Source of the DNA: Lama guanicoe
Taxonomy: Eukaryota
Direction: 5' to 3'
DNA: 64,000 nt
NCBI GenBank assembly: GCA_013239625.1
Contig: MU053574.1
Span: 1-64,000, forward strand
A program made the position numbers and the translations under genes. Below are positions 16,206-42,596 of this stretch, piece by piece. Position 1 is the first letter of the stretch. Each line of letters begins with the position of its first letter. The notes beneath the pieces were generated by a model. It searched no databases. It saw only the letters and a program-made list of their open reading frames with translations, and was not told where the DNA came from.

Positions 16206-16209
16206 GTAA

Positions 16210-17335: not shown

Positions 17336-17346
17336 NNNNNNNNNNN
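17336..17346. other. Assembly gap (11 N)
   Basis: Run of N bases. Confidence 1.
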
Positions 17347-18829: not shown

Positions 18830-19487
18830 GCCTGTGGGTGCTATGAGGCAAGGTCACGTGCTGTCCACGGGCCCCATGTGCCCAACCTAGCCTGCATCGC
18901 CTGTGGGAGGAAGGCTGGTGAGTACCCCTGGGGACGGTCCACACCCCACCCCAGCCAGGGGATGGAATCCAAGCCACATCCACTTGAGCAGGGGCCCTGC
19001 AGTTCCCTTTTCAGCCCCTCAGAAGACAACTGGGAATCTGAGACAAAGAGAGAGGCTCAGGACACTTGAGGTGGCCAGAGACCAGTGCAGGAGGTTTCAG
19101 CCTTCCTTGGAGTTTCCACTGGGAATGAGAACCCCTGAAGTCCCCAGGGAACCCTGCCCACCCCTCCTATGTAGTGCTCTTTCTTTTAGGCACCCCCCCA
19201 TGTGGACACACACACACACACACACACACAGACTGCCCTCCTGGGTGTCAGAGGGGAGTGCACAGTGGGGAGGTGACAAGGGGTGAGAAGAAAGAGGTTG
19301 GGGCAGCTCTGCCACGGGGCAGGGGCATCCAGTACCCTAGCAACATGCCCGGGCCCACAGCAAGGGGAGGGGACAGATGCCAGGCTGATGGCAGGGGGTC
19401 CCCAGGGGACTGCCTGAGTGGGGACCATCCACAGGGCACCTTGAGAGAACAAGGGGCTGGGGTCCTGTATACATCACTCTGGCTATC
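18830..19487 (+). pseudogene. CpG-decayed copy A of the RALGDS distal promoter/exon-1 donor/intron-1 start
   Basis: Aligns by eye to ~45780-46850; shared agaagaaagaggttgg..ggcagctct motif at 19286 and 46639; donor-like gtgagtacccc at 18918 vs gtgagtgcccc at 46173. Left boundary is uncertain. Confidence 0.75.
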
Positions 19488-19489
19488 TA

Positions 19490-21745
19490 AAACGTACTAT
19501 ATACTTAACCCATTGGTTATGTTTTTTGTGAAGTGCCTAGTCAAATCTTTTTTTGATGAAATTGTTCATATGAGTAAGTCCGTGTTGGTCTTTATTTGAA
19601 TGAAATCATACAGCATGTACTCTGTTTTTATGATTTAAAAAAAGTCATCACATTTAATTCACCATCTTAACCATCTAAAGTGTACAGATCAGTGGTTAAG
19701 TACATTTGCTGGGTTGTGAAACAAATCCCCCGAGCTTTTCCTCTTGCAGATCTGAAACTCTGTAGCCTAAACAACACTCCCCTCACCCCCTGCCCCTGAG
19801 CTCCAGGTAACCACCATTCTGTTTCCATTTCCGTGAATAGGCTCCTTTAGATACTTCCTAGAAGTGGATTCATCCACTGTTTATCTTTTGTGAATGGCTT
19901 ACTTCGCTTGTCATAATGTCCTCAAGATTTATGTATGATGCAGCCAGGATCTCCATCCTTTTTAAGGCTGAGTAATATTCCACTATATGGATAGACCATA
20001 TTTTGTGTATCCACTCATCCACTGGTGGACACTTGGATTGCTTCCCCAACTTGGCCATTGTGAACAGTTATGCTGTGAAACTGGGTGTGCGGAGTTTCTC
20101 TCCCAGATCCTACTTTCAATTCTTCTGGATATATCGCAGATGTGGGAATGTTGGATCATATGGTAGTTACATTTTTAATTTTGAGTCACCTCCATACTGT
20201 TTTCCAGACTGTTTGTGCCATTTCACAATCACACCAACAGTGCACAGGTGTTCCAGTTTCTCCATATCCTTGCCAATATTTTGATATTTTCTTTCTTTTT
20301 TAATTAATTAGCCATCCTAATGACTTATATCTCTTTGAGTTTCTTTGGTCTATATTTTTCTAATGGGTAGTGATTTTTTTAACATTTTTTATTGAGTTAT
20401 AGTCATTTTACAATGTTGTGTCAAATTCCAATGTAGAGCACAATTTTTCAGTTATATATGAACATACATATATTGTCACTTTTTTTTTTGCTGTGAGCTA
20501 CCACAAGATCTTGTATACATTTCCTTGTGCTATACAGTATAATCTTGTTTATCTATTCTACATTTTGAAATCCCAGTCTGTCCCTTCCCACCGCTCCTCC
20601 CCCTTGGCAACCACAAGTTTGTATTCTATGTCTATGAGTCTGTTTCTGTTTTGTATGTATGTTTTGGGGTTTTTTTTTAGATTCCACAAATGAGCGATCT
20701 CATATGGTATTTTTCTTTCTCTTTCTGGCTTACTTCACTTAGAATGACATTCTCCAGGAGCATCCATGTTGCTGCAATGGCATTATGTTGACATTTTTAT
20801 GACTGAATAGTATTCCATTGTATAAATATACTACATCTTTTTTATCCAGTCGTCTGTTGATGGACATTTAGGCTGTTTCCATGTCTTGGCTATTGTAAAT
20901 AGTGCTGCTATGAACATTGGGGTGCAGGTGTCTTTTTGAAGTAGGGTTCCTTCTGGATATATGCCCAGGAGCGGGATTCCTGGGTCATATGGTAAGTGTA
21001 TTCCTAGTCTTTTGAGGAATCTCCACACTGTTTTCCACAGTGGCTGCACCAGCCTGCATTCCCACCAGCAGTGCGGGAGGTAACGGGTAGCGATACTGAG
21101 CTTAGTTTCCTACGCTTGTTGGCCATCTGTAGATCATCTTTGGAGAAATGTCTATTCAAGCCCTTTGCCCATTTTTTAATCAGTTTATTTGCTTTTGCTA
21201 TTGCACTGTAGGAGTACTTTATTTATTCTGCATATTAACCTATCATAAGATATACAATTTGCAAACGTTTCCTCCCGTGCTATATAGGTCACCCTGTCAC
21301 CGGCTGTGTGCGCTGAGGCGTGGCCGTCTGCACTCTGACGCGGTCCTGTTGGATCATTTTGTTGTTGGTGTCGTCTTCTATCACTTTGGTGTCACGTCCA
21401 AGAAATCACTGTCCATCTAATGTCATGGAGTGTTTCCCCTCCACTTTCTTTTGGGACTGTCGCAGCTTCTGGACTTGCATGTAGGTCTTTAATCCATTGT
21501 GAGTTGACTTGCACCTGGTATAAAGGCCCAGCTTCGTTCTTCTGCACGTGGCTGTCCAGTTTTCCCAACACCATTGGTTGAAGAGACTGTCTTTCTCCAC
21601 CGTGTGCCGTGGCTCCCTTGTTGACGGTCACTCGATCATTTACACAGGGTCCTTCTGTGGGACAGCTATGCTGTTCCTCTGGTTGATTCATTTTTATGAC
21701 AGTATCAAAAGCTTTGATTAATGAAGATACGTAATATGCTTTGAG
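19490..21745 (-). mobile_element. Nested antisense L1s; younger L1 at ~20375-21080 with TSD taa(t/c)gggtag(t/c)gat
   Basis: ORF2 peptides on minus strand ([28 protein letters not shown]); TSD at 20361-20374 and 21081-21094. Confidence 0.88.
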
Positions 21746-21769
21746 GTGAGGATGTGGGCATTCGCCTAC

Positions 21770-21950
21770 GGCTTGGAACTAGACTCAGTCCTAGGACCAG
21801 CTCCGAGGCCAGCCCGCAGCCGGGCCGGCGGCATCCCCAGCGTCGGCCACAGCACCAGCGCCAGTGCCCGAGCCACCTCCTGCGTCACCTCACCACCGCA
21901 GCTGAGCTCCAGCTGGCACCCGCTCCGGCACCAGAGCAGTTTTTCACCTT
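21770..21950 (+). pseudogene. RALGDS Pro/Ala/Glu repeat exon fragment (unit 1)
   Basis: GLELDSVLGPAP and AAELQLAPAPAPEQ resemble recalled RALGDS LELEPAPEQ/APAPAPEL repeats; frameshifted. Confidence 0.55.
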
Positions 21951-22289
21951 GCCCAGGAAGGCCATCTTTCCTTTACTTTTCTCCTTTATATGAGCTTTCA
22001 TTTTTATATTTATGTGTTAAAATTTAGACACAATAAAATGTAGCCCTGGAATTATTTTAAACTGTACCATTCGGCAGCATTACTGCTTTCTCTACGTTGC
22101 GCACCATCAGCATCTAGCTCCGGGCACTTCCATCACCCCAGCAGGAGCCCTGTCCCATTAGCAGTCACGCCCCAAACTCCCTCAGCCCCTGACAGCTGCC
22201 AGTCTGCTTCCTGTCTCTACGCAGTTCCCGCCCTGGCCTACAGGCCTCTCATGAGTTCAACTTGACCTTCCAACGTCCCTCCCCCACAG

Positions 22290-22930
22290 AGGTGAAGACC
22301 CTTGGAAATGCCAACATGTTCTGTGCCACGAACTCGAACTCTACCACCGACAACGACTGTGTTCTGACCAAGACGACCTCCAGCAAAGGGGGGAAAGGCA
22401 GGCAAGGAGCCAGCTCAGCCCTCCCCCACCTGAAGCAGGAGGGACTCAGGATTCCACAGGCATCTTCTAACTGGTCCTTAGCACTGGCCAGTCACATGGC
22501 CGCCCTCCCCAGCAGCTGCCTGGCTGGGTGACTAAGCACTTACAGACTGGAGTGACAAAGGTTGGGTGAGCACTGTCCAGCCAACCTGCTGGCCCAGGTC
22601 ACCCCCAGGAAGAGTTTCACTCTGCACTTCTCCTAATGCGGGGATGACGCCTGCCAGTCAGCAGGCTGCCCTGGCCTCCCACAGACCACTTTTAGCTTCA
22701 GGTGCCTTCTGATCTCTGGAGTCCAAAGGACTAGCTGTGGCTGCAGACCCTGAGACAGAGTTTGTGGGTTCATGGTTGCCAAGGAGAACTACCCCTGGGC
22801 ATGAAGCCTTGTCCACCACCCAAGCACTGCCCTCTGTAGATCTCCCCCACACCCCCAGGAGCAGGTCACTGCCATCTGTACCCATGGGCCCCATAGAGCA
22901 CCACTCATCCTGTGGATTTAACCACTGCAA
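22290..22930 (+). pseudogene. RALGDS last coding exon + proximal 3'UTR (unit 1)
   Basis: Acceptor ccctcccccacag, then VKTLGNANMFCATNSNSTTDNDCVLTKTTSSKGGKGRQGASSALPHLKQEGLRI..GIF* (TAA 22468-22470), vs human [58 protein letters not shown]. Confidence 0.88.
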
Positions 22931-22952
22931 AGCGGCCTTTCCACCCACCAAG

Positions 22953-23567
22953 TCACTAGGTCCTCAACACAGAGTCCAGGACCAGAGACAGCTCCCACTC
23001 CAAGTCCTATGACCAGTTAGATGGGCCCAGACCTTGGCAGCAGGGACAGTGACCTTGTGCTCAGTGTGCACTTGGCCAGCTCCTCCAGCTTCAAAGTGGA
23101 GGAAATAAAATGAGCTTTGACACAAAGTCTTATGATGTCCAGTAAAACCAGGTGATGGCCCCGCCCTTTCTCCCAGACAGCCCTCCCCAGCCCCTCCATT
23201 CCTAGCATGAGAGTTCCCCACTCCACATTCACCAAAGGGGGCAGGAAGCCCCGGCTCTCAAACAGAGCTTCTAGAAGCCCAAGAGCTTGTTGCCAACCCA
23301 GGGTGCCCTGCAGAGTCCTGAGAATCTGCTGACCGTGCTGCCCACCATAGTTACAGAAATTGACCTCCCTGTGGTCCCCAAAGATCTGGCATCAGCTCAG
23401 CCCCCAGCACCATCTCCTCCTCAAGCCTCAACCACGAACCCACAAACTCTCTGTCTCAGGGTCTGCAGCCACAGCTCCTCGCTGCAGCTCTCTATCCAGC
23501 ATGGGCAACAGCACGTCTTCACATCAAGCTGCCCGTGGATAATGGCAACACGTACAAGAGCATCCTT
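22953..23567 (+). pseudogene. RALGDS Ser-rich exon (22953-23151), intron, and RA-domain-start exon (23351-23567) (unit 1)
   Basis: SSHSKSYDQL..VLSVHLASSSSFKVEEIK vs SSHSKSCDQL..ALSVHSAGSSSSDVEEIN; RTHKLSVSG..VDNGNTYKSIL|gtgag vs RTHKRSVSG..VDNGNMYKSIL; splice sites kept; stops and frameshifts present. Confidence 0.88.
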
Positions 23568-23745
23568 GTGAGTTCGGCAGGCCAGGCATCCTCTTGGTTC
23601 CTTCACTTGGACCTCTCTGGATACACACCTCTTTTGAATGGCTGCCTGGACAATGAGCCCAACCGGGTCTTCCTGGCAGCGTGCCCACCCCTGAGGCCAG
23701 GGATGCCATAGCTGTACACAGGGGGAAACTGAGGCAGGCCTCACC

Positions 23746-24535
23746 TAGAACCAGAACCCGCTCCAACAGCAAGTGCAGAGTTAGAGGCAATGCCAAGTTC
23801 AGAGGATGACCCGGCATGGGCTCCAGTGTTAGAGCCACGCCAGCTGCAGCCCTTGCACCAGCTCCAGAGGTACAAACAGACTAGCATTGCATTGGTGGTA
23901 TAGTGGCGAGCCTAGCTGCCTTCCAGACACCCTAGCATCAGCTCTGGCACCAAAACAGGAAATAGAATAATCTCTAGTACCAGTCTGAACACAAACTATA
24001 GAGGTAGAAGCGGCTTTGTTACCAACTCCTGTGAAAACTCCAGTGATCGTTCTAGCACCAGACCTGGAGTTAGAACCAGCTCAAATCAGAGCCAGGTCCT
24101 GAGCCAGCCTGAGCACGAGTTCCGAGCTAGAGCCTGCGCAAGCCCAGAGCCAGCACCAGTTGCAACAAGAACTCCAGCTCCAACACCAAAGCTATAAGTA
24201 GCTCAAGCACCACCACCTCCAGCATCCAGAGAGGAACCGCTCCATTGCCAGCTCTGCAGCTAGAAGCCGTTCCAGCACCAATTCCAGAGTCAGAACCAGT
24301 GTGAGTCTCAGGACTAGAATCAGCCCCACCTCCTGCCTTAGAGCCAGCTCTTGGAACCCACTGCAGAGCTATGGCTGGTGCAGTTGACCCAGCAAGAGTT
24401 AGCACCAGCACCAGCTCCAGCCCAGAGCCAGATCCAGTGGCCTGTCCACAGCGCGAGGAAGCTCCGACCCCACCCCGGTGGCTGCTCAGGAAACACACCA
24501 GTGTCAGCTCCAGAACCAGAGTCTTCCTGTCCTCA
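23746..24535 (+). pseudogene. Expanded RALGDS Pro/Ala/Glu repeat exon (unit 2)
   Basis: Degenerate ccagctccag repeats; SGLESAPPPALEPA (~24308-24350) vs human VGLESAPAPALELEPAP; interrupted by stops. Confidence 0.7.
23889..23925 (+). pseudogene. 5' half of tRNA-Gly(TCC), tailless retropseudogene
   Basis: GCATTGGTGGTATAGTGGCGAGCCTAGCTGCCTTCCA matches the tRNA-Gly(TCC) 5' half through the anticodon; no 3' half; flanked by a degenerate direct repeat. Confidence 0.8.
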
Positions 24536-24549
24536 CTGGGACAGCATTC

Positions 24550-26420
24550 TTCTCCTGTTTTTGTTTTCTTAAAAATCTTTTCACATACTTTCAGGTTATC
24601 TGTACTTTATGTGTTAACTTTCCTACAAAATAAAGCTTATCTTTTAAAACATATTTAACTGTACAGTTCAGTGGTATTAACTGCATTTGCTATGCTGGGC
24701 ACCATCACCACCATTTAGTTCAAGACATTTTCATTACCCCGAAAGAGAAAGTCCAGCCCATGTCCACTGAACATTCACTCCCCATCCCCCACTCCTCCTA
24801 CTTCCAGGGACCCCCTCCCCAGCAACGCATGGGAATTCCAATTTCCCCAAATTCTCTCCAACATTTGGTGTTTTCCATTTATCCAATTATAGCCATCCTA
24901 GTGGGTGGAAGTGATGGGTGACACTGGCTTGCATTTCCCTAATATCTAGTGGTGTTGCTCATCTTTTCATGCACTTAATGGGCCATTTGTATATCTTCTT
25001 TGGAGAAATGTCTATTATTTTTGTTGCTTGTGTTTATGTTCTTAAGTGCAGGAGTCCTTCATGTATTCTGTACAAGATCTTGATCAGATTGTAAACATCT
25101 TTTACCAGTATTTGGGTCTTCATACTCTCTTGAGATTGTCCTTTCATTCACAAAAGTTCTCCATTTTGATTAAGTCCAACTTATCAGGTTTTTGTCCCTT
25201 GCATGATTGATGCCATATTAAATATACCATTGCCAAATCCAAGGGCATGGGGTTTTGCCCTCATATTTCTTCTAAGATGCTTTACTTTTAGGTCTTCAAT
25301 TTAGGTCTTTGATCCATCTGGAGTCATTTTTTTTATATGGTGTGAGGTAGGGCTCCATCCTCACTCTATTGCTCGTGGACATCCAGCTTCCCAGCACCAT
25401 CTGGTAAAAAGGCTGCTTTCCTCTGTTGAATGGTCTTGACAGCTAAGTACAAAATCAATTGCCTGGGCTTATGTCTTGATTCTCAATTCTGTTTTATTGA
25501 TATATGTCTTGTCTAACTGCTCTTGCCAAACTCCCTTTACGATACTGAAATGAAAAGGCAAAAGTGGGCATCACTGACTTACTCCTGCTCCTAGGGAGAA
25601 AATTTTAATCCTTTCTCCACAGAGTGTAATGTACATGTGAGTTTTTCATAAATATCCTTTACCATGTGGAGGAAATGTTCTGTTTCCATTTTATGGAGAG
25701 AACTTACTAAAACGTTTAGATTTATTCAAATGCTTAAATGCTTTCTTTTACACCAACTGAGATGATCATGTTTTTTATTGATGTGTTGTGCGACACTGAT
25801 TAATTTATGTTGAACAGCCCTTGCATTCCTGAGATAAGTCGCATCGGACATGATGTGTAGTCCTTTAAATATGCCACAAAATTCTGTTTGCTAGTATTTT
25901 GTTTAGGATTTTTGCATCTCTATCCGTAATGGGTTTTGGCATGTAAATGTGCTTTCTTCTGGCGTCTTTGGAATCAGGTTAATGCTGGCCTCACAAAACG
26001 AGTTTAAAAGTGTTCCCTCCTCCTGTACTTTCTGAAGACTTCAGAAAGAATTGGTGTTATATCTTAAAATGTTTAAGACAAAACCCCAGTGAAAGCATCA
26101 GGTTCTGGGCTTTTCTTTGTTGGGAAGTTCCTATTACTGCTTCAGTCTATTTATTTATTATACAACTACTCAGGTTTTCCATTTCTTCTTGAGTCAGTTT
26201 TGGTTGCTTGTGTGTTTCTAGGAATTTATCCATTTCATCTAGGTTAACCAACCTGTTCTATTAAATTGTTTAACGTTTGTCATTTTGTAAATCTATCAGA
26301 GAAAGAACTGTTGGATTCATTGATTTTCTTGAATGTTCCTCTGTTCCATTTATCTCTGTTCTGATTTTCATTATTCGCCCCTTTGTCCTTCCAACTTTAG
26401 GTTTGCTTTGCTCTTCTTTG
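24550..26420 (-). mobile_element. Old L1 (3'UTR-ORF2), antisense
   Basis: T-rich L1 antisense hallmarks (tttggagaaatgtctatt; ccagcaccat; ggaatttatccatttcatctagg). Confidence 0.85.
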
Positions 26421-26425
26421 TCCAG

Positions 26426-27455
26426 CTAAGCAAGGGCATCTTCTCATCAGCCCCAGGCAACAACCAGCCACAGGGCCTCTCTCCCCAGGTCTGGGTTGTT
26501 AGGTAGATAAGTAATTACAGGCTGGAAACCAGGGCACCTTCCACCCCAACTGGCAGTCCAGGCCACCCCCAGACTGTGGTTTCACCCAGAATCTCTTCTC
26601 CTCCCAGGCTTTGATGCCTGCCCATCAACAGCCCGACCTGGTCTCTCATAGGCCACAGCCTTAGGTGTTCTCTGTGCTCTGGGAACAAAAGGACTTGCTG
26701 AATTTTACCAAGGAGCACTGCCCACGGGCACAGAGCCCTACCCACCACCACCAGGCACTGGCTGTGCACCTCCATCACACCTTCCCAGGTTTGGGTCACT
26801 GGTACCTATGCCCATGGGCATCCAAGAGCATCCATCACCCAGTAGGTCTGACAATAGCAAAGCCAGCCCAACCATCCGGCCTCCAGGCCCCAGCATGGAG
26901 CCCAGGGCCAGCAGAGTTCCTATTTCCAGTTCTGATATCAGCTAAGGAGAGGCCCTGAACTCAGCAGCTGGGACACTGCCCATGTGCTCAGTGTGCACTC
27001 CAGCTCCAAAGTGGAGTGGATCAATATGAGCTTTTCCACCTGACGGAGAAGAAGGCAGTGCCCCTCCTTCTTCCTGACAGTCCTTCCCAGTTCCAGCGTA
27101 TCTCACTCCATACACAAAGGGGCCCGAGAAGCCCCAGTTGCCAGAAGCCCCTGAAGTTGGATGCTGGCATAGGGTGTCCTGCAGGGTCTGGGCTCTGCTG
27201 ATCTCCTATTTCTCAGGTTCCTGGTGTTGACATCCTCATCATCCTCGGGGACCTCAGGCATCAGCTCGACCGCCAGCCACCCCTCCTCCTCTTCAGCCCT
27301 CACCGCATCCCTGGTAGCCCAGGCACACAAGTGCTGTGTCTCTGGGTCTGCAACCGCAGTCCTCTCTGCAGCTCTCTGTCCAGCAGGTGAGTGAGCCTGC
27401 ACCATCCGTGTCAGCCTGGACATAAGGACAGCAACAAGCACATAGTATACTCTTG
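26426..27455 (+). pseudogene. RALGDS end of last exon/3'UTR, then Ser-rich exon (~26880-27054), intron, and RA-start exon (~27217-27455) (unit 2)
   Basis: AAG GGC ATC TTC (KGIF) at 26432; UTR paralogous to 22470-22930; FLVLTSSSSSGTSGISSTASHPSSSSA..AHKCCVSG..TIRVSLD vs FWESASQSSPETSGISSASSSTSSSSA..THKRSVSG..IIRVSLD. Confidence 0.85.
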
Positions 27456-27479
27456 GTACAGCCATCCTCCTGGTACAGG

Positions 27480-29425
27480 CATCACCTGAACGGCTACTTT
27501 GACAAGAAGCCATCTCTGGCCCCTCCCTGAGAGGAGGATGCTGGCTCCCACAGCCCCGCTGTGCACAGGAGGAGACTGAGGCTGCCTCCTCATCCTGGGT
27601 CTGTTCTTTGGGATCCATGCTGGATTACATGGATAACGTATCCAACAGGATCCCTCAAAAGCTAGAATTCGACAGGCTGAAGCTCTGACAAGACAGCCTG
27701 CATCTTGTCTCCCTCAACATGCAGGGACCATGGATTCCTTGTTCAATCTTCAGACCCTGTGCTATGTGGTCCAGATGTCCTCCCTACTGTGCACCCCTCA
27801 CCCCTACTCCAGCCTCCCTGCAGCCTTCCTCCCCCAGGGACCCCACCAAACGTCTTCTCCCCTCAGAATCCCTTGCCTGCAGTGCCCCTCCCCACAGCCC
27901 CCCATCGACTCACCTGCAAGGCTGCACTCAGAGGCCACCTCTTCGGGCTCCTGTCCAAGCACAGCTCTTGGGGTCAGACTGACCGAGTTGAAAACCACAG
28001 CACGGCCACCTCACAGCCCCGTGACAGGCAAGCTCATGTGGTGGCTCTCAGAGTCTCAGTTTCCCCCACTGAAAAATGAGGTCAGTGACTCTGACCTTGG
28101 GAGGGAGTGCTGGGGATAAAAGCAGACAGATGAAGATGCCCAAAGTGCTTGGACTCAGGAGGTCACCTGGCCAGGGGAGCCCAGCACAGGACAAAGCTCT
28201 GATGGTCAGCATGGGGCTCAGTGATGGAGAAGAGCAATGATTTTGAGTCTCCAATTCACGGCTGGACTTGGTCAGCCAGAGCTGAGTGACCTTGAGAGCT
28301 GGGGCCACAGCTCACCTATAAAGTGGTGTGAAATCACTGAGTGCCCAGAGGGATCGCTAATAACAGTAACTACCCCCAACACCAACCCACAGGGGTGGCG
28401 GGACCCTCCACCCTGGGATCCCTCCGTCCCTCTTACCCGAGCCGGGGCTGCATGCGGGGGACAGGCTGGACCTGGTGTCTTGGGGCGCTGTCAGAAAGAC
28501 AAAGGGAAGGCAGGTAGAGGAGGGGATGGGGTGGCCTGACCTTCCCCCTGCCGGAATCGGTGTCCACTGCTGCCTCCACGCCCCCCTGACCCAGCATCAG
28601 CACGGAGCTGAACCCTCGGATGAGTCTGGGGCCGAGGACATAGGGGTGGGGGTTTATTCCGTGGCTATCTTATCCCCGGGTCTCCATGCTTACTCGGCCC
28701 AGCGCTCTGCGGCCAGCCAGCCAGCGGCGGGGGGGGGAGGGGGTCTTGGGGGTCAAGGGGAGGTGGGGCCCAAGCAGTTACTGGGGGCTGGGAGTACCAT
28801 CAGGACCGGTAGGGAGAGGAGCCGTCGGCACGGCGCGTGCGGGCGGTGAGACTGCTGGGGCCGCGCCGGCTCCCACGCGAGATCTGGAGGCCCCGCCCCC
28901 TTGGCGGGGTTGGCCGCCTCCCGTCACGGGGTGGATGGAGGGGCGGGGCCCGGAGCGCACCTCCCGGCCTCCCAGGAGAGCGAGCCAGCGCAGCGTCTAC
29001 GCTGAGCCTGTTAAGCAGGTCGTGAACCAAGCCCTCGTGGGACGATGAAGAAACTGAGGCCAGGAGAGAGGCAGGGAGTCGCCCCAGCCACAGGAGGTGG
29101 ACACGGTCCAGAGGACGAGGGTGCCAGCCTCCCAGACCAGGGTTCAACCGTCCCATAGGGTTTGCACTGGAAATGGAAGATCCTGAGATCCTGAGGGTCC
29201 CTGCTCACCCCCTCCCATCGGGACCCTTTCCTCTGGGCATTGACACGTGGGCACACACTCACACACAGACTCACACACTAAATGTCCTGCTGGGGGTCCC
29301 AGTGGACCCTGGGATGTGACAAGAGAGAAGAAGAAAGAGGTTGGAGGCAGCTCTGCCACGGGCAGGGGCGGCCAGTCTCCTGACACTGAGACCAGCCCCG
29401 CAGCATGGGGAGGGGACAGACGAGG
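27480..29425 (+). pseudogene. Copy B of the RALGDS distal upstream/promoter/intron-1 block; retains a CpG-rich core (~28690-29040) but lacks the MMVDCQ exon
   Basis: Colinear similarity to ~44400-46740, including a 29-nt identity gtcagtgactctgaccttgggagggagtg at 28081 and 45016. Confidence 0.9.
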
Positions 29426-29476
29426 TGAAGGCGGTTCTGTGCTGCTTGGACTCCTTCATTCCTTCTTCCCACATTT

Positions 29477-31715: not shown

Positions 31716-33339
31716 GAACCTCTGAGGTAGGGACAATGGTTCCCCTATATTCTAAGTGGGAAACTGAGGTGCCAAGATCCCTCCTGGCCTGTGAGGAGCA
31801 GCACTGGGGTTAAAGCCGTGTCCCTCCAGCCCAAAGGCACAAGGCTTGGCTGGTTCGGCCTCTTCCTGGAAAATGGAGCCCTGAGCAGGGACGTCAGAGG
31901 CCCTGGGGCCTGGAATACCTCGGCTCCCTCCCCTGCACACCAGACACACTGTGGCCTGTCCCCTGGGCCTGTCCCCACCTGGAACACACGTCACATCTGA
32001 CGCAGGACCTGCACGTGCACACACGTGCACACAGAGTCCGTGAAACGCTGGCTCTTCCTGGGACGGTTGCTGTCTCATGTTTTCTGTTTTACTTGAAAGT
32101 CCCAGCTACCCCACACGCTTGGTCATGGCCCACTAAGCAGTGGTAAGGGCAGTGGGGACCTCTGCCTGAGACCCCCGGGCCCGGCCCTGGGGGTGTCCTC
32201 TGCAGGGCTCTCAGAGACAGGCAGAGATGGCCATCCATGCACATGAGCAGCTGATACATGTCTCTAGTCATTTCCTTTGGTTTCTAGAAGTAGATAAACT
32301 GAACCAAAGGGAAGGGTCTCCGGGTCCCATTGCCGAGTCACTCTCCAGGAGGAGAGTTCAGGAACCTTTTATCTTCCCTCACCCTTTTACCCCGAGGCTG
32401 CCCTGAGGCTGACTTTGTCCTCTCTCCTGGAGGGTAGGAGGCATGGGGAAAACAGAGATTGTCGGCTGGGTCAGCGGACAGCTGCTGCCCGTTGGCAGAA
32501 TGCTGGCATGTCTGCCAGGGCTACAGGGCTGGGTCTGCCCCATCCCGCCCAACTCTTTATTGTCAGGATGGGACCAGTATCCGGAAGGTACACCAGAGAA
32601 CTTTGCAAAAACACAAACTGAGTGAGAAAAACCAATCAGCTGGTCCCAGACTAGATCCTGGGAAACTAGTGCTTGCATCTAAAAATAGTCATGACCTTTC
32701 AGCCAACAGTCACCAGCTCCCCCGGCCTGTGCCAGGCCCCTGCAGACTCTGGGGAAACAAGCCAGGAACTTAGGGTCCTCAAGGGAAATCCCAAGGACAC
32801 GGGCAATGACGTCCACAAAGGACCTGGGAGGCTGTGCCCAGGCGCCAGGAAGATCTGGGTTTGTAACTTCAAGCTGCATCAATGTGACCTCAAGCAAACC
32901 TATAACCTCTCTGAGCCTTGATGGTTGTTCTGTCTTCCATACTGTTTCTCTGTCCACCGATTCCCAGACTTCCAATGGGATTACCTCCTGATAAAAGTCC
33001 CATATGGTCTGTACCAAGTTCCTCCCCAGCCCTTGTTGCTTGGCCCCTTAGTTACTATCAGGGTACCTTCTTTTTGCCCCTCTGAATGCCCCCCACCACC
33101 AAGCCTAAGCAGAGGCCTCTACCTCCAAGGCCTCCAAGCCCTGCGCTTGGTCTATGCTTGGAGACGTGTAAGAGGGTCTCCCTGGGGCTCCTGGAATCCC
33201 TGGGATGAGCCAGGGTCAATACTACCCCTACAGGCCATGGTTGGAAAGTACGGCCAACTCTTCTAAAAACAATAGTTTTTTCCCCCAAACCCTTTCTCTT
33301 ATTTCTCAGGCCCACATCCCCATCCGCAGTGGCCGGACC

Positions 33340-34780
33340 CGCACTTCTCGCCCGGAAGCCGGGCCCGCTGCTTCGGAGACCGCGGCCTAGACGCAGGATA
33401 GAGCCCAGAGGACTCCCTGCGCGTTGGGACCCGGGGGACCGGGGCGGCAGCTGGTAGGTGGGGCGTGCGGGCAGATAGGCGGGGCAGCGGTGAGTGGGCG
33501 GGGCGCACAGGCTGGTCGGTGGGGCTGCGGCCAATGGGCGGGGCGCAAGGCTCCTTTTCCCTCCCCAGAATCCCACCAGGCTCCGCCCCCGACCGGCCCT
33601 GAGTCAGGCCCTACCCAGTGGGCTACTGGAAGTGCGGCGCGGCCGCCCGATTTCTCCGGAACCCCGGCAATCCCTGATTTCCCGGCCGAGGTGCGCCGTT
33701 AGGATCCGTCCTAAGGCTGGTCTGGCCTCAGAGGGGTGAATCTGCAGCCCGCAGGGACAGTCGCGCTCCCTCCGCCGCACCTTGTCCTCGCCCCGCGCCC
33801 GGCCGGAGGAGGAGCAACGAGCAACGCGAGTCCCGGGCCCGCAGTGGTCGGCGGAAGTCCAGGTGTGCGTTCTGGATGCAGATCCCCGGCTGGGGCGGAC
33901 GGAGCTCGGGCCTGGCTCTGCGTCGGCAGAGCGGCCCCGGGAGCCTGGGCCGGGCAGGAGGCAGGATCTAGCCGACGCCCGAGGCGGGGCTTTAAGGGGC
34001 GGACGCTGCGCCCCAAGCCCGGTAGGGAAACGGGTCCGCAGACGGAGGAGAGGGACGGGCTTGCTAGAGGCTACTTGAGTGAGCAGGGGCCAAAGCCCCA
34101 AAACTCCGGTCCGGGGAGCTTTATGTGATCCCGGGCGGATACCCGCAGGGCTGCCGGGGGTCCCAGGCTCACTGTGACCCGGGCGGGACCAAGCGGCTTT
34201 ACAGCCCTTACCGCCCATCAGGGGCAGTGCGTCTTGTTCCCCTCCACCACCAAGACCCCTATAACTGAGGAGGACACTGAGGCTGTGGCGGAGCGGGAAG
34301 GAGAGTGACTTGCCCCGAGTTACCGCCGAGCTGTGAGAGCTGAGGTGCTTTCCGGCGGTCCCCTGGAAAGCGCAGGCCCCGCCTCCCGGAGGAATGCACT
34401 GCTGCCACCCCTGCCCGACCCCCCATCCCTCCTAGGGGTATCGCGGCCGCCCCTCTCTGCGCAGCGCTCCCGTCCTCAGGCCTGGTGTGTCCCCGCTGTC
34501 CCGGCTCTGGGCTTGCTTTCTGATGTCCTGTTCCCCCCGGGAATCCTCCAAGCCCGGCCTCAGCACTGTTGACCTAGTCCCTAGGATGGCCACCCTTTGC
34601 TCGCGGGGTAAGGAGGTTGGGGGAGCCGAGGCCGGGGGCCGATCGTCCGGACCCGAGTGCCTCTCCCAAGGCACAGCTGCAGGCTTCGGCTGAGCGCTGA
34701 GCCTCTGTCCCCGGGTCAACTTACCGGAACTGCCAGATCTGGGCCGGGGGCGGGGCGTCCAGCAGGACGAGGAGATACCC
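33340..34780 (+). promoter_or_regulatory. GBGT1: GBGT1 CpG-island promoter with GC boxes and CCAAT (~33531); candidate non-coding exon-1 donors at 33691 and 33863
   Basis: CpG-dense, several GGGCGG boxes, directly upstream of the exon-2 acceptor at 34872-34873. Confidence 0.75.
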
Positions 34781-34991
34781 GGAATCCACATTCCCCTGGT
34801 GGGGCTACCCAGGGGAGGGCAAGGCAGCAAGGACGGGGCCACTGTTCCCTGGATAAGGAACATTCCTTTGCAGGTGTTTCCGGACCCTGGAGACACAGGC
34901 CCAGAGCCTGAGAGCCCTGAGAGAGGTGGGCTGATTCACCAAGGCACACCCAGTCTCTGCAGGTGCCCAGGCTGAGATGCTGCACCCCAAG

Positions 34992-35062
34992 ATGCATTGC
35001 CCCAGGCTAGCCCTGGGCCTGGGATTCTGCCTGCTGGTGGGCATGGCCCTCTACTGTCTGTG
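34992..35062 (+). CDS. GBGT1: GBGT1 (Forssman glycolipid synthase) first coding exon: MHCPRLALGLGFCLLVGMALYCLW (TM anchor)
   Basis: Matches human MHRRRLALGLGFCLLAG; 71 coding nt; GT donor. Coding exons total 1044 nt = 347 aa + stop. Confidence 0.93.
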
Positions 35063-35642
35063 GTGAGCATGCCCCATGGAGCCCTCCCTCCCCACCTCAG
35101 ACACTCCCTCTGTCAGCATCTCAACCCCGCAAACCTTGACCCCTTCACAGGATTCCAGGTCCCACCCACCTCTCCTGGCACACCTGTCCCCCAGCCCCAG
35201 CCCCGGTTAAGACTGAACTAGTCTGGCTTATGGGGGTAGAGCCGGGGGGGGGGTTGCCTTGTACTGGCCTCCTAGCCTTTGCACTTGTTCTTTCCTTTTC
35301 CTGGACTATTCTTCTCGCTGTGTTAATCAGGAACTCCTGTTTGTGCCCCAAAATTCGCCCCAGGTGTTCCTTCTGCAAAGCTCCCGGGGCTGCCCCTCAC
35401 CTTCAGCCCCTTATGTGCAGGGCGTGGCATCCAGAACATTCCTGCCCCAGGAATGAATGGCTGCATGGGGGCATAATGACAGCACTGCAGAAGGCCAGGA
35501 GGCTTTGTCCTCTGAGGTCAGCCAGACCCAAGGAGTGATGGGGGATCCCCAGGTGCAGCCCTGGGAGCCTTCACTCCCACAAACAAGTGAGTTTTCAGCC
35601 TCAGGGGCAGAGTGGAGTCAAACAGGTGTTTTTCCTTCCCAG

Positions 35643-35708
35643 GGTGTATGTGGAGAGCTCGCTGCCAGTCTCCTACGTCCCCTATTATCTCCCCTGCCCA
35701 TCGATCTT
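35643..35708 (+). CDS. GBGT1: GBGT1 coding exon (VYVESSLPVSYVPYYLPCPSI)
   Basis: 66 nt; AG/GT; LPVSYVPYYLPCP motif. Confidence 0.95.
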
Positions 35709-37624
35709 GTAAGTATCTGGGTAGGAAGATTGGGGGCGCTGTGAGCTACCCAGAGTGGGGGAGTTGGGAGGGTTTTTAAGGTCACTTTGCAGGTTCTTAG
35801 GTCGTAAGCTCATGATTCTGATCAGTGTGATAAATATGTAGGTAATTTGTGAACTGCCCTAAATGTGGAGTGAAATTCTCTTGTTTCAGTCCTTGGGTGT
35901 CCCTGCAGGACCCCCTCCATGGTGTGACCTGGAGCTTGTTGCATAGCTCTGAGCCTCACTTGCTGTATCTGTAAAATGGGATGATAGAGGTGCCTTTCCC
36001 GGGCCACTTGGAGCATGGGCTGCAATGATGCCTGTACAAATCCGGTATTGCACCTGACCGACCCATTGGAAGTACTCAGTAAACGATGCTTTTAGGACTT
36101 GACCTTTTTGCTCAATTTTGTCTTCTATGTGGATTCATGGAACAAATGGATAAGGGACCCGTCTTCTCCACAAATCTGATTTTTTTGACAGTTAAGAGGG
36201 GAGAAGATGGTTTGGGACAGTCTCAAGGGTGCGTTTGGCCCCATCGTCTTTTGTTTTTTGTGAAAGCAAAAGGAACGTTTAAAATCTGAATCAGAGACTA
36301 CTAATTAACAACAAGGTGTGTTTTACTCTTATAAACATAGAATATGGAAATTAAGAAGCTGGAAAACAGAAAAGACAGAAAAAAAAAACCCTCTTATGTC
36401 CTCCTGGTCTGATCATACTCTGATTCCAAAGTTCATCATCAACTTGTTGATTGCTCCGCTTTCTAATTTGAATAGATTTGAATAGAAGCAGAAAGGCTAC
36501 TTGATACTGAAAATAGTTGCGACCATGCTGTTTTTGCAATTTTTATCCTGCTTTCCCAGAACTGGCTTTGTTTGCCAGCGTTTGGTCACCATCATTTTAT
36601 TCAACCCAGGGGCTGGGCTCTGATTCTTGAACCCCTCTCCTTTTTCCACCAACAGCTTTGGGGCATTTGGGTTGCTTCCAGTCTCCTAGCATTCTAAATT
36701 AGTTTGTAAAGCTCTGATTATAAAGCGGTTTCCATATTGAAGATCCTTTTGTTTGGTACATTTCCTTCCTGAGCCAGAGGACATGGCTGGGTTCTTCATC
36801 CATCTGGTCAGGTTGTCCCCAGAGGGACCATCTCGGTCACACACTCCCACTCCTACTCACACAACACCACTCCCACCCCCAGCAGCTGCCTGCATCTGGG
36901 CAGGTGCTGGAAGTATCAGGCATCACAACAAACAAAAACCAAACCATCTTGCTGATTTCAGAGATGGAGACGGGAAATGCCATCTGATTTAATTTTTTAT
37001 TATTTTTTTTAATTTAAATTTTTAAATTTCACTTCTTGGATTCCTACCAGGTCCTCATCTCCCCAATGCTTTCCCTTAACTGAATTTTCTCTTCTGTGAC
37101 TCGCCTGCTCAGCCACCTCCCTTCTTTGGCCTGTTTTGGGGGTTTCTGTCACCTTGGTCGCAAGTAATTGCTGCATTTTTTTTCTTTCCAGTTTGTCTGT
37201 CTTTTGGTTCTCCTGAGTAATTTTTTTAAATAGACTGAAGTTGGAGATTTTTTTGTCTGTTTCAAATGGTCACAGCTGCCCCTCTGTTCATTTGGATCTC
37301 TCCTTTACTTTTGGTTTTATTACCTTCAGAGGTTTGGAAATGTGAAGTTCCTCTTTTTGGCTATGGCTCATCCGTGGCCTTGGTATTCTTATGTTCAGCT
37401 CTTTAACGTGGCCGGAGTAGGGTGTGTTGAAGCTGATGGGGACAGGGGAGGCGCTGAAGGCCAGGGAAGTGGGGAACATGGGCCCTTCCCCTCTTCTCCC
37501 TACTGGCCATCTTCTCAGTCCCATCAGTTTCTGAGCAGGCACTTGAAATGTGCTTGTCTTTGTGAAACTAGATCAGAAGGCCAATTTGATGGATTGACTT
37601 TAAAAACATTGTTGCTTCAAGAGT

Positions 37625-37905
37625 AGAGACTGATGACAGAAGGACAAATATTACAGGGTATCATTTATATGAGCACTCTAGAATAGTCAAATTTATAGAG
37701 ACAGAAGTAGGAATAATGGTTACCAGGAGCTCAGGGAGAGGGGATGGGGAGTGAGTGTTTAATGGGGACAGAGTTTCAGGTTGGGATGATGAAAGAGTTG
37801 GAGATGGATGGTGGTGATGGTAGCACAACAATGTGAATGTACCTAATGCCCTGAACTGTTAAAATGGTTAAAATGTTAAATCCTTGTAATGTGTATCTTA
37901 CCATA
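37625..37905 (+). mobile_element. L1MB-type 3' end
   Basis: agacagaaggacaaatatt...ggagatggatggtggtgatggtagcacaacaatgtgaatgtacctaatgcc. Confidence 0.8.
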
Positions 37906-38551
37906 CACATACACGCATGCACACATGTGTGCGCGCGCACACACACACACACACACACAGCATAGCTGGAAAAAGTAGGAAAGCTCTAAGAGGCCTAGGG
38001 CATCCCATCCTATGTGACATATTGAAGGTACCCAAGCAGACGGGCACCGCATCCTCAGGTGGTCTGAGCCTTATGGCCGACCTCGGGCCTCTGCTGGAGC
38101 TGGCTCTGACCTGCTTTCTGGGCAGCCTTGGGCCAGCCTTTCCCTTCTGAAGGCCTCACTTCTGCTTGGAGAATGAATGTATTGTCCCTATTTTAAGGGT
38201 GAGGGAACTAAACCCGGAGGATTGAGATGTCTGGCCCCAGGTCTCTCCAGCCACCTAGTGGCAGAACCCGGAGTTGCATGACCTGTAGCCTCCTGTGTCT
38301 GAGCCTGCCACCGGCCACCTCCTTCCTTGGGCACCCCTCTTCTAGTTCACCCAGGTAGGCCTGGGCTGAAGCTGGTGGAGGCTGACCACACAGACTGCCT
38401 GACAAGAAGAAGCCAGGGTACTGGTCTTTCTGACCATTTGTTCCGTGCTGAGCATGGGCTGACAGCCCCTGACTTCCATGGCTCCTTTAATTTTCATGGC
38501 AGCCCTGAGGGTTAAGGATGCTTCCTCCTTTTACAGATGAGGAAAAGTGGG

Positions 38552-38935
38552 TGTATCAGTCAGGGATCCACTAAAGAAGCAGAACCAAGAGGAGGGAAGG
38601 ACACCGACAGATCGATCAATTGATTGATTGAAAGAAAGTGTCTCCCGTGACTGTGGGGGTGGCTAAGCCAGTCTGAAATCCACAGAGCAGGCCGTCGGGA
38701 AGACGAGCTGGAACTCTGGGCAGGAGCTGACACGGCTGTCCATCAACAGAATTTCTTCTTCTTCAGGGAAACCTCAGTTCTATTCTTAAGGTCTTTCAAC
38801 TGAGTGTGTTAGGCGCCCCCCAGACTGAAGAAGATGATCTTTAGGTTCAGCCGGTGTAGATGTTATTCACATCTACCAAACATGCACGCACCTTCACGGT
38901 AGCGCCTCAGCTGGTGCTTGTGTAAGTGGACACTA
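38552..38935. mobile_element. MLT2-like (ERVL) LTR
   Basis: tgtatcagtcaggg...cagaacca...gtctgaaatccacagagcaggcc...ggaactct pattern. Confidence 0.6.
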
Positions 38936-39314
38936 CAACTGCCCATCGCTGTGGACTCAGGCTAATTAACTCGCCCAAGGGTCCCAGGCTAGAAAGTGGG
39001 CTCACGGGGACCTTACAGCCTCTCAAACCTCCTGCCCAGTGCCACATCCTACAGAGCAATGAGTCTGAAAGAGCACCACTTCTTGACAAGTGGCACGAGG
39101 CTCAAATCATACAGTGCCCCTGGACAGCCGGCTTCTGTAGGAGCCCAGCCCCCGCGGAGCAGGCCGAGCAGTGGGGAAGGGCATCTGCATGGAGCCTGGG
39201 GCGGCGGGAAAGGGTGCCTGCCCCGGGGGGCTTCAGCTCAGCTTCATCCTTCCCTGCTTCCTATCTCTGCCCCCGACCCTGGCACTAATGGCTCTGCCTC
39301 ACCTCTCCCACCAG

Positions 39315-39365
39315 CAACATGAAGCTGCAGTACAAGGGTGAGGAGCCGTTCCAGCCTGTGGCACC
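39315..39365 (+). CDS. GBGT1: GBGT1 coding exon (NMKLQYKGEEPFQPVA)
   Basis: 51 nt; AG/GT; phase-consistent. Confidence 0.93.
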
Positions 39366-39445
39366 GTAAGCTGACTGTCATTCCCCATGGGTGGCCCCGG
39401 GGGTGGGGGCTGCCTCCGCTCACCACTGGCCCTTCTTGGTTGCAG

Positions 39446-39481
39446 GTCACAGTACCCTCAGCCCAAGCTGCTGGAGCAAAA
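39446..39481 (+). CDS. GBGT1: GBGT1 coding exon (SQYPQPKLLEQ)
   Basis: 36 nt; AG/GT; YPQPKLL motif of GT6 family. Confidence 0.93.
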
Positions 39482-40072
39482 GTAGGTGTGGAGCAGCGCC
39501 TGGGTGCAGAGGGAGAGACCTGGGGTGGAGGTGGCGGGGACAGAGTTCTGGTTTATAAGTTGGGGTAGTGGAGGTGTCATGTGGCCTTAGGATCCTGGTA
39601 GTCTGGGACCTGGGCCCCAGTCCAGCTCTGTCACTTGCTGTGTGACCTTGGGCAGGTTCCCCAACTGCTCTGAGCTTTTTCTGCACAGGTGGATAATAAT
39701 AATACCCCCCTCTTAGGATGTTGTAGGACCAGATGAGATGGTGTTTGTGAAACGCAGAGCACAGGGCCTGCTGTTTCGTAGCACGTGATCTGTTGGTAAT
39801 GATGATGTTAATGACCTCCATCTCTGAGGCACTTAGCAGGCTCCTGAAATGCCTGACACCCCCCTCCCCAGCACTTGGCGTGTGTTAACTCTCTCCTCTT
39901 GACTGTGCTGGGGAGTAGCTATTATGATCCCCACTTTCCCTATGAGGAGACTGTGGCCCAGAGACAGGGAGGAAGCTGCCCAGGGTCACACAGCAGGGGA
40001 GGCAGGGCCAAGAGGAGACTGAGGCTTTCATGAGGGGAGGGTCTCAGCCCCCACAGCCTCCTCTGCTGCCAG

Positions 40073-40207
40073 GCACACCAGGCTACTGACACTCACACCC
40101 TGGTTGGCGCCCATCGTCTCTGAGGGAACCTTCGACCCTGAGCTTCTGCATCACATCTACCAGCCACTGAACCTGACCATCGGGCTCACAGTGTTTGCCG
40201 TGGGGAA
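40073..40207 (+). CDS. GBGT1: GBGT1 coding exon ([44 protein letters not shown])
   Basis: 135 nt; AG/GT; GT6 [12 protein letters not shown] motif. Confidence 0.95.
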
Positions 40208-41255
40208 GTGAGTGGTGGGCTGGGCTGCGGGGAGAGGGTGGTTTCTGAGCCCCAGGGACTGATAGTCCTGGGAGAGACAGGACCCTGGCCCGGGCACCAG
40301 GGAGGCTCTGAACCAGGTGCAGGTGGGACGGTGCAGACTGTGATGGTAGGAGCGGGGCTTCCTGGAGGAAGACAGTCTGGCCCTGGCACAGAATGGGGCC
40401 GGGGGAGGCAGCCTAGGTGAGGGAGCAGCAGGAGCCTTTGTCAGGAGACATCCTTGCCCTCTCGCCCACCCACCCTGCTTCCCCTGAACGGTCCAGGCAG
40501 GTGTGAAGGAATAGAAACCCCCCAAGACCACGTCACATAAACAGGGGTCTGTAGTCAGGCCACAGGCAGGTCAAGAGACCTAGGCAAAGCTGGACCTGCC
40601 CCAGGACCTTCTCTTCACCCCAACGCCTGCCTACTCTCGGGACCACCACCCCCACTTTCCCCTCCCCTCCCTCCCCCTCCCCCCCACTGCTTTTCTTTTA
40701 GGAGCCATTACCTGGCAGCTTCCCTCTGGGTCCCTTCCTGGGGCTCCTGAGAGAGCGACCCTGATGGGGCCCCAACGCCTAAAGTGCTGCCCGCTTGGGG
40801 TCAGAGCACCTCCCACCCAATCAGCTGCGGCCGGGAAACGTGGTCCCGGCACCCAGCACCCCACACCACTCACCTGCTGCTTGGTTACTTTCCTCTCTCT
40901 GAGCCTCAGTGTCTGTGCCTGTAAAGTGGGGATTGTGGTGCTGGCCTTCTTGGGAGTTTATGAGGCCAGAAGGAAGTAAGAATCTCTTAGAACACTGCCT
41001 GTCACTTAGTAAGACTCAGTCAAAGTGAGTTCTGTCCATGACTATGAGAGTCATAAAGTATCATTATTAGGATGATCTTAGGAGGTTGGTGCTATGATTG
41101 GAGGAATCTGGCAGACGAAGACCACGAGGGTCAGACCTGAGCGACTTCTCGAGGCGGGAAGCTAGGCCCTGGCCCCACATGGTGCTGGCACATAGTGGGG
41201 ACCCAGACGGCAGCCTTGTGGCAGTGGTGGTGGATGATGAAGTCATGTCCACCAG

Positions 41256-41940
41256 GTACACCCAATTCGTCCAGCGCTTCCTGGAGTCGGCCGAACGCTT
41301 CTTCATGCAGGGTTACCGAGTGTGCTACTATGTCTTCACCGATGACCCCACGGTCCTTCCTCGGGTCCCGCTGGGCCCCGGCCGCCTCCTCAGCATCGTC
41401 CCCATCAAGAGGCACTCCCACTGGGAGGAGATCTCCACACGCCGGATGGAGACCATCAGCCAGCACATTGCAGAGAGTGCGCACCGGGAGGTGGACTACC
41501 TGTTCTGCGTCGATGTGGACATGGTATTCCGGAACCCATGGGGCCCGGAGACCTTAGGGGACCTGGTGGCTGCCATTCACCCAGGCTACTTCGCTGTACC
41601 CCGCCAGCAGTTCCCCTACGAGCGCAGGCATGTGTCCACTGCCTTTGTGGCTGATGGCGAGGGAGACTTCTATTATGGTGGGGCGGTCTTTGGGGGGCGG
41701 GTGGCCAGGGTGTACGAGTTTACCAGGGGCTGCCACATGGGCATCCTGGCGGACAAGGCCAATGGCATCATGGCGGCCTGGCAGGAGGAGAGCCACCTGA
41801 ACCGTCGCTTCATCTCACACAAGCCCTCCAAAGTGCTGTCCCCCGAGTACCTCTGGGATGACAGGAAGCCCCAGCCTCCCAGCCTGAAGCTGATCCGCTT
41901 TTCTACACTGGACAAGGACACCAACTGGCTAAGGAGCTGA
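41256..41940 (+). CDS. GBGT1: GBGT1 last coding exon (catalytic GT6 domain)
   Basis: DVD motif, FYYGGAVFGG, WQEESHLN; 685 nt to TGA. Confidence 0.97.
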
Positions 41941-42590
41941 CGGCAGAGTCCAGGCTGCTGTGGATGGGGGGACCCCAAGCCCTGCACCCAGTTCGCCCCC
42001 AGCCCCCAGTGCAGCCTACTTGCAACAGTGCCTCACTTCCCAAGCCTTAGCTGAGACCAGCCCTGTGCCGCCTGCCTCCCAGTCTGCCAGCAGAATCCAG
42101 AGGGAAAATGGGCGTGTAAAGACCTTTGCAAACTGTAAAGGGCCATGCTCACACTAGAAGAATGCAAAGATCACACAGCATGTGGCCCCAGAATGGTCGA
42201 AAGGGAGGAAGGGAGACTAGAGGTGGAAGGAGACAGGGCCCGCAGGCCTCACCCCACACACGTGCCTTGGGGGCGGGCGCTGGAGTCTCAGCCCCGCCCA
42301 GGGACTGAAGTCCCCACACCCCCCTCCTTTTGTCGCCTGTCGCCCTTAAGTTTGCACTTCCAGCACCCTGGTGTGAAAGGCATCCTGGACCCCTTTTCTC
42401 AGGCTGCAGGAGTTCTGGGTCCTGGGATGTCCCCCAGCCACACAGAGACAGTTTCTCACTCGGGACCCCAAGTGCGCCTTTGAAATGGACCAGGTTGAGG
42501 CTTTCTGGCTTAAGTCCAGCCTGCACTTGAGGTGGCCCACACTCCCTTGGCACCAGCCACCTTCTCTGTAAGAGGGTTAGGGCAGTTCTT

Positions 42591-42596
42591 AATAAA
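42591..42596 (+). terminator. GBGT1: GBGT1 poly(A) signal
   Basis: AATAAA ~650 nt after the stop, followed by GT-rich sequence. Confidence 0.75.

Follow-up and report, generated by a model that had tools for sequence, protein, structure and literature searches.

The DNA analysed here, 64,000 nucleotides of Lama guanicoe (the window, positions 1–64000 of contig G000:C1217, GenBank MU053574.1, which was examined to 144 kb for the parent gene), carries between a lipocalin gene and a GBGT1-type gene a series of blocks derived from RALGDS. They are best read as the eroded remains of RALGDS copies that retained introns and lay head to tail in an array, likely without function; the array would have arisen by one ancient genomic duplication followed by deletions, insertions of long interspersed element 1 (L1) and inversions (probability about 0.8). 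The block identities, the junctions shared between units, the broken reading frames and the sister pieces at other gene boundaries are observed; the history built on them is a reconstruction. Blocks are designated P (distal exon-1 region), R (expanded exon-6 repeat), U (exon 18 and 3′ untranslated region, UTR) and E (exons 15 and 16), and coordinates are given in the table below. Parent exons were mapped with RALGDS protein P0002 and are numbered as in this analysis only. The labels L1, long terminal repeat (LTR), short interspersed element (SINE), glycine transfer RNA (tRNA-Gly), ABO, GLT6D1 and RGL1–4, and the names of mechanisms, are provisional or assigned by synteny.

All blocks map to RALGDS on the same contig, on the + strand, at ~64–74% identity and with E-values reaching 1e-94 and below, in agreement with an earlier note on this DNA, and the three peptides quoted there are present in the block translations. 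Camelid RALGDS proteins were the best matches of an exon-bearing frame downstream. The P copies align to 44.4–46.9 kb, as had been claimed, with P1, the stub and P2 matching 44388–46855; even the stub scored 3228 (maximum of 100 shuffles, 1952), and P2 comprises 27519–28710 (parent 44460–45653, 73%) and 28890–29420 (parent 46179–46730, 65%). Derivation from another family, considered earlier as a refutation, found no favour: U and E scored 18,144–29,189 against RALGDS, about ten times the scores from two further intron-rich paralogue loci (maximum 2,489), a comparison that covered those two loci minus the RGL1-like 3′ exons. Alignment extends to intron 15, the terminal part of intron 17, the 3′UTR and 1.2 kb of upstream DNA, and the blocks are therefore genomic copies. 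Intron 15 is kept in both E copies (65%). The unprocessed origin previously proposed is thus upheld, introns, 3′UTR and non-transcribed flank all being retained (44.4–45.6 kb at 73%), and a processed pseudogene is ruled out by the presence of intron 15 and the intron 17 end.

Adjacent units share derived junctions, as expected of a tandem array: the U/E, E/P and R/L1 junctions all recur in units 1 and 2, which supports the tandem duplication of a rearranged unit suggested in the earlier note. The R/L1 alignment between the two units is unbroken (67%, 295 columns; score 6398, maximum of 100 shuffles 1878), and U1 and U2 have 15 sites in common, as opposed to 6 and 3 in the alternative pairings. 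Read in the coordinates of the parent, each unit runs forward from P to R to U by way of deletions, jumps back from 91028 to ~86601 (U/E) and then from ~87263 to ~44390 (E/P), with both back-jumps at the same position in both units. The order of the array is that of a head-to-tail join with a 660-bp insert (E) taken from near the distal end. What had been described as exon scrambling is therefore a permuted order indeed, but one that reduces to a single complex back-jumping junction, U/E/P, plus ordinary colinear deletions. The units differ in the P remnant (46135–46855 versus 44388–44531), in the length of L1 (~0.3 versus 1.9 kb) and in the start of U (90368 versus 90584), so erosion continued after duplication. 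Contrary to the proposal that a unit was compacted and then duplicated, the units were already separate before compaction ended.

Stops or frameshifts were found in E1, E2 and R2; R2 extends over ~790 bp, compared with ~240 bp in the parent, with 6–14 stops per frame. U1 is open for ~60 codons, with a frame shift near its end, and the short R1 has stop-free frames. The 14 other RALGDS exons, including RasGEF exons 7–14, gave no real match in 13–33 kb: 12/14 scored at or below the maximum of 8 shuffles and exons 2 and 5 slightly above it (≤1,989), whereas exons 15, 16 and 18 scored 9,102–10,462 in the same search. Nothing points to an encoded protein, which the array likely lacks, and the interval is probably an inert, ancient array of unprocessed pseudogenes.

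Features of the array and of its parent locus (contig coordinates; o/e, observed/expected)
Feature	Position	Strand	Description
P1	18823..19493	+	parent 46135–46855, 64%; distal exon-1 region and intron 1 start; CpG-depleted, o/e 0.07–0.15
Older L1 remnant (L1 label provisional)	19494..21760	-	younger L1 (~20371–21085) nested inside
R1	21770..21945	+	3′ end of expanded exon-6 Pro/Ala/Glu repeat; 21832–21934 matches parent 81089–81193
L1 3′-end fragment	21946..22233	-	inserted at R end; same insertion in unit 2 and ABO-side unit
U1	22234..22930	+	intron 17 end, exon 18 coding, 5′ part of 3′UTR; parent 90368–91028, 69%
E1	22934..23597	+	exon 15, intron 15, exon 16; parent ~86601–87263; 22951–23597 matches 86619–87263, 68%; frameshifted
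P stub	23609..23745	+	first 140 bp of duplicated segment; parent 44388–44531
R2	23746..24535	+	expanded exon-6 repeat; pieces in 24036–24533 match parent 81079–81315
tRNA-like insert in R2	23888..23930	+	most of the 39 other genomic matches of R2 fall here
L1 remnant, ~1.9 kb	24540..26425	-	longer version of the insertion after R
U2	26431..26860	+	stop-codon region and 3′UTR; parent 90584–91028, 69%
E2	26862..27460	+	exon 15, intron 15, exon 16; 26865–27442 matches parent 86606–87222, 67%; stops, frameshifts
P2	27465..29432	+	parent ~44390–46745; several hundred CpG-island bases gone, including exon 1
CpG-rich core in P2	28800..29099	.	GC 0.72, CpG o/e 0.79, 30 CpG
GBGT1-type gene	33100..42600 (5′ limit approximate)	+	between P2 and parent promoter
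Parent segment P	44388..46855	+	distal exon 1 coding bases 46155–46172; RALGDS extends to ~91.5 kb, past the window
Parent exon 6	~81081–81409	+	P0002 mapping
Parent RasGEF-region exons 7–14	82142–86329	+	P0002 mapping
Parent exons 15–16	86622–87234	+	P0002 mapping
Parent exon 18	starts 90425	+	P0002 mapping

The array, treated as local in the earlier note, is not purely so: sister pieces also adjoin ABO-like, FAM69B and MRPS2 genes. On contig C4400, positions 461–1417 cross the same E/P junction as both units and adjoin FAM69B; behind P this copy continues into exon-2 and RasGEF-intron pieces, and the array therefore once held more of RALGDS. A third R/L1/U..P unit lies inverted on contig C6096 (1784244–1786588, - strand), ~8 kb past an exon of the glycosyltransferase family 6 (GT6), and its segment 1785497–1786007(-) aligns unbroken to 21796–22335 of the window across R/L1/U (66%, 489 columns; score 8825, maximum of 20 shuffles 1779). 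GT6-like exons were located at C6096:1775805 and C4400:859230; the former, following MED22 and SURF6, is ABO by synteny, and the latter, GLT6D1 by synteny, stands at the C4400 end with a lipocalin flank and another RALGDS scrap. Pfam neighbours of the sister pieces are FAM69B, SURF6, MED22, MRPS2 and PPP1R26. Another P copy, at C6096:254.5 kb near lipocalins and MRPS2, is 94–96% identical to that of C4400. Five of the six non-self matches to P sit at these boundaries, and RALGDS-derived DNA was present at each lipocalin boundary examined. Moreover, rearranged fragments carry copies in inverted orientation at their two ends: an MRPS2...SURF6-GT6 fragment lies between P(+) at C6096:254.5 kb and P(-) at 1784 kb, and C4400 has pieces at both of its ends. 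Counts of genomic copies are lower bounds, as DNA searches missed copies that other queries recovered (C1709, C2211).

Further RALGDS pieces were observed on C6096. A copy of RALGDS 78998–81045 (exons 3–5) at 283556–285638 (-), 94% identical to the parent and beside MRPS2, probably corresponds to RALGDS-like LOC105068620 of the Bactrian camel listing. Near the ABO-like gene, a RasGEF-region piece at 1794562–1796540 (+; parent 84536–86357) is 72% identical to the dispersed C6394 and 69% to the parent, and represents a second copy lineage at that boundary.

These boundaries have been described before. GBGT1, ABO, MRPS2, KCNT1 and FAM69B lie at the boundaries of rearranged fragments at which LCN1/3/4 are clustered, and the ABO-MRPS2 and FAM69B-KCNT1 fragments have been rearranged more than once (Yamamoto 2017, PMC5571153). 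Tables in that paper give a camelid order GLT6D1/LCN9, KCNT1 ... FAM69B ... and, for Bactrian camel, MRPS2, RALGDS-like LOC105068620, LCN1 and LCN10 (PMC5571153); the tabulated camelid order fits the contigs seen here, whose joins rest on gene order. In the sections of its text considered, RALGDS is mentioned twice, as a stable single-copy neighbour, and old RALGDS relics with shared junctions do not appear (PMC5571153). Passages of PMC8016878 mention neither RALGDS nor GBGT1, and among the literature matches listed there was no paper on RALGDS relics at these loci.

A plausible course of events begins with the copying of 44.39–91.03 kb and its joining head to tail, in which the copy would have passed from 91028 to ~86601, 660 bp (E) would have been copied, and the path would have returned to ~44390. 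Such a junction fits a replication template switch with a short templated insert, of the type known as fork stalling and template switching or microhomology-mediated break-induced replication (FoSTeS/MMBIR). The units would then have multiplied, likely by unequal crossing-over. In one of them an L1 would have inserted at the end of the expanded exon 6 and the RasGEF exons would have been lost; that L1-bearing unit, copied again, would have given units 1 and 2 and the ABO-side unit, each of which may then have lost further DNA independently. Inversions breaking in the lipocalin-rich boundaries could have carried pieces beside ABO, FAM69B and MRPS2. The simplest reading of the array's position upstream of GBGT1 would be direct insertion there at the first duplication step.

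A less likely course is that DNA circles excised from RALGDS (86.6–91.0 kb and 44.4–87.3 kb) were reinserted upstream of GBGT1. Circles yield end-to-start joins, which both U/E and E/P are; the array is displaced across GBGT1, of whose last exon no remnant was found in 13–33 kb (score below shuffles); and in several dispersed RALGDS copies almost the same 3′ segment is missing, with a jump from 86335 or 86858 to 91373–91417. However, two overlapping circles would be needed where one template-switch junction suffices, and the ends of the dispersed deletions (86335/86858, 91373+) do not match 86601 and 91028. The idea that the two are reciprocal products was accordingly rejected, the breakpoints differing by hundreds of bases. 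Mis-assembly or chance similarity, for which one could cite a fragmented assembly with gaps at lipocalin boundaries, can be practically dismissed, as the copies are ~30% diverged from the parent and from each other and their matches have the very low E-values given above. The earlier note had held mis-assembly to be improbable, and a contig from an independent run (one of four) does bridge 22759–23843 with 4 differences, spanning the U1/E1, E1/stub and stub/R2 junctions. Between 0.82 and 0.94 of the words of 26430–29430 (unit 2) were present in 20/24 listed runs from 7 studies, although the best match among those runs may be the source sample itself; no RNA run was among those listed as carrying it. 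As for function, GBGT1 does lie between RALGDS promoter copies, as previously pointed out. P2 has a CpG-rich core in the orientation of GBGT1, ~4 kb ahead of the CpG island of that gene, and this core might have been exapted to serve GBGT1, or a non-coding RNA, as an upstream promoter or enhancer. Its o/e of 0.79, and that of 0.93 in the C4400 core, compare with 0.15 in P1, and values ≥0.6 were seen in only 3/87 GC-rich background tiles. This nonetheless appears quite improbable: the signal is a single 300-bp tile, exon 1 is deleted from P2, and an o/e of 0.66 in an R1 tile and 0.52 in a C4400 repeat tile imply that local GC-biased change can yield such values.

RALGDS has also been copied elsewhere in the genome. 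The dispersed set, mostly more diverged (57–66% to the parent), comprises C1709, C2211 (two), C2397, C7680, C7910, C9224, C7800, C6394, C2055, C6332 and nine partial copies; most keep RasGEF-region DNA without exons 15–18, and those with detectable exon peptides look broken. They may be RGL4-like, a provisional name; comparison of their proteins returned no match named RGL4 or RALGDS-like, only two unnamed proteins. The partial copies, at least nine in number (C8063, C9531, C4396, C7381, C8775, C7365, C4139, C5662 and C7802), are ~82% alike to C7910 and in most of them RALGDS exon 3 is joined to intron 6; they amount to another round of expansion by a compacted RALGDS-like unit. On C2211, two diverged RALGDS-like copies face each other (41016–55539, +; 77525–94284, -). 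C2055:15945–18978 and C6332:174284–178241 are near-identical and have a long expanded exon-6 repeat joined to 3′UTR; their RasGEF deletion is apparently independent of that in the window.

In trees of P, the copies P1, P2, C4400, C6096a and C6096b grouped together with support 89/87, and 85/89 in a trimmed tree from which a non-homologous stretch of C6096a was removed and C2055, C2211a and C2397 were left out. The link to the RGL4/RALGDS-like expansion suggested in the earlier note fared only partly well: a grouping of P1 with two dispersed copies, C1709 and C2211b, chosen after the first tree, was rejected (approximately unbiased, AU, test, p 0.004), leaving at best a deeper common origin. 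Nor does the interval resemble a family member in content, the RasGEF (CDC25) exons 7–14 being absent from 13–33 kb. That the array was the birthplace of the dispersed, RGL4-type family is consequently doubtful. In its favour, dispersed copies likewise begin near distal exon 1 and pass over most of intron 1, of which C4400 and C1709 each omit ~29 kb; upstream of exon 2 these two have ~330 bp in common that are missing from the parent; an expanded R joined to U is present in C2055 and C6332 too; and, with the parent as root, a single group of all copies is conceivable. Besides the AU result, the greater divergence of the dispersed copies from the parent counts against it, as do the different U start (90678) of the R/U join in C2055/C6332, where no L1 was seen, and the failure of an apparently shared flank upstream of P1 to align over the gap that separates it from P. 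That flank (L1 and LTR pieces shared with C1709/C2211a) is absent in C2211b and was set aside as common repeats. A putative LTR after P was likewise uninformative as a shared mark, appearing to start inside sequence that the parent also has.

RALGDS was duplicated at several times, with copies ranging from ~59% identity up to the 94% copy beside MRPS2. For the age of the array, residues were compared in 31 of the 120 proteins listed as matches of the downstream frame. Every cetartiodactyl row that covers residue 642 has Cys at that site, and every other row has Ser; the codon is TCC (Ser) in E1 and E2 alike, and the copies therefore probably predate crown Cetartiodactyla. The first base of codon 661 is still of the non-camelid type in the copies; Arg850 fits laurasiatherian rows and residue 820 leans the other way. 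Kimura two-parameter distances were 0.42–0.45 between units and 0.29–0.39 between parent and copy in non-coding DNA, compared with 0.23–0.25 between younger L1s (the L1 interrupting unit 1 has one of these inside it) and 0.04 for the recent copy. Residues and distances together suggest that the array is older than the cetartiodactyl crown and probably arose close to the placental radiation.

Several observations weigh against an ancient, inert tandem array with this history. P2 retains a CpG-rich core that a wholly inert relic would not need. Junction microhomology is unreadable after ~30% divergence, so the template switch can only be inferred, and the contig order C6096-C4400-C1217 was likewise inferred from gene order rather than from overlaps. 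Support in the P tree is below the tool's starred level; P1 and P2 are not sisters in the best tree, yet a constrained pair is not rejected (p 0.091), and E-block quartets (9/5/8 and 7/6/3) show no clear pairing. As to age, Ser642 amounts to a single observation, since the two E copies are sisters, and E2 conflicts in having a cetartiodactyl-like first base at 640 and a camelid-like codon at 742. Lastly, young lipocalin-flank repeats (92–98%) occur at the same boundaries, and the RALGDS pieces may have travelled with those duplications rather than record the inversions.

The relics are nonetheless likely markers of the ABO/GBGT1 breakpoints. Yamamoto 2017 demonstrated repeated rearrangement at these boundaries without naming a sequence substrate (PMC5571153), and the array offers 3–4 unique, datable junctions (R/L1, L1/U, U/E and E/P) which, traced across mammals, could order the inversions and test whether breaks reuse one duplicon. 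A far-reaching version, which we regard as speculative and unlikely, would make RALGDS a core duplicon early in placentals. One compacted copy of it would have given rise to this array as well as to the dispersed RGL4/RALGDS-like genes; inverted array copies, travelling with lipocalin genes, would have supplied the homology behind the recurrent inversions of ABO-MRPS2 and FAM69B-KCNT1 and behind ABO gain and loss across mammals. Such a driving role is made less likely by a 92% inverted lipocalin-flank repeat that lies on either side of the same MRPS2-ABO fragment; moreover, RALGDS copies that are ~65% alike are not expected to be recombining today.

Other features of the window may be noted. 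The L1 halves flanking the nested young L1 align to adjoining parts of the 24.5–26.4 kb L1. The insert in R2, which we take to be the 5′ half of tRNA-Gly, has a short flanking repeat and resembles a tailless retropseudogene. In unit 1, 22729–22788 and 23429–23476 form a 48-bp inverted, near-identical pair (94%), younger than the surrounding divergence, for which a small template switch or conversion is possible. The GBGT1-type gene has a CpG island at 33.1–34.9 kb, a GT6 exon frame at 41098–41940, whose GT6 domain spans 41098–41937 (Pfam, E 7e-112; domain matches in 2/16 frames scanned), and AATAAA at 42591. The lipocalin gene, a candidate for the OBP2B of the earlier note, is marked by a weak Pfam match (7357–7794, E 0.006); within 5966–13328, which holds this gene and its flank, segments are 92–98% alike in C6096 and C4400, possibly reflecting recent duplication or conversion among boundary lipocalins. 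Between it and P1, at ~13500–17700, are endogenous-retrovirus-like and LTR-like remnants. Two tRNA-Ala calls by ARAGORN (48518–48591 and 49980–50051) coincide with SINE-like repeats and are likely not tRNA genes.

Among known systems, the array resembles complex tandem-duplication junctions of the FoSTeS/MMBIR kind in that an end is joined to a start with a short insert derived from the vicinity of one breakpoint (E, 660 bp, from ~3.8 kb inside the distal end), although here the mechanism is read from a fossil. The LCN1/OBP2 duplicons at 9q34 and the fragment boundaries tabulated in PMC5571153 involve the same GBGT1, ABO, FAM69B, MRPS2 and GLT6D1/KCNT1 sites with lipocalin copies. RALGDS-like and RGL4 (Rgr) genes likewise came from RALGDS by genomic duplication, and many dispersed intron-bearing copies exist here. 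Those mostly keep RasGEF exons and are without exons 15–18, whereas the window units are the opposite, with no open frame and with P in another branch. RGL4 is patchy across mammals according to a passage of PMC3141262, and rat Ralgdsl entries exist, as an excerpt of PMC13477028 indicates. Unlike catalogued segmental duplications of >90% identity, the array, at ~64–74%, would be missed by standard tracks and gene annotation. The closest likeness in kind is to unprocessed pseudogenes in mosaic segmental duplications: the array likewise keeps introns, UTR and promoter, and likewise has broken frames and shared breakpoints in a mosaic that was copied again.

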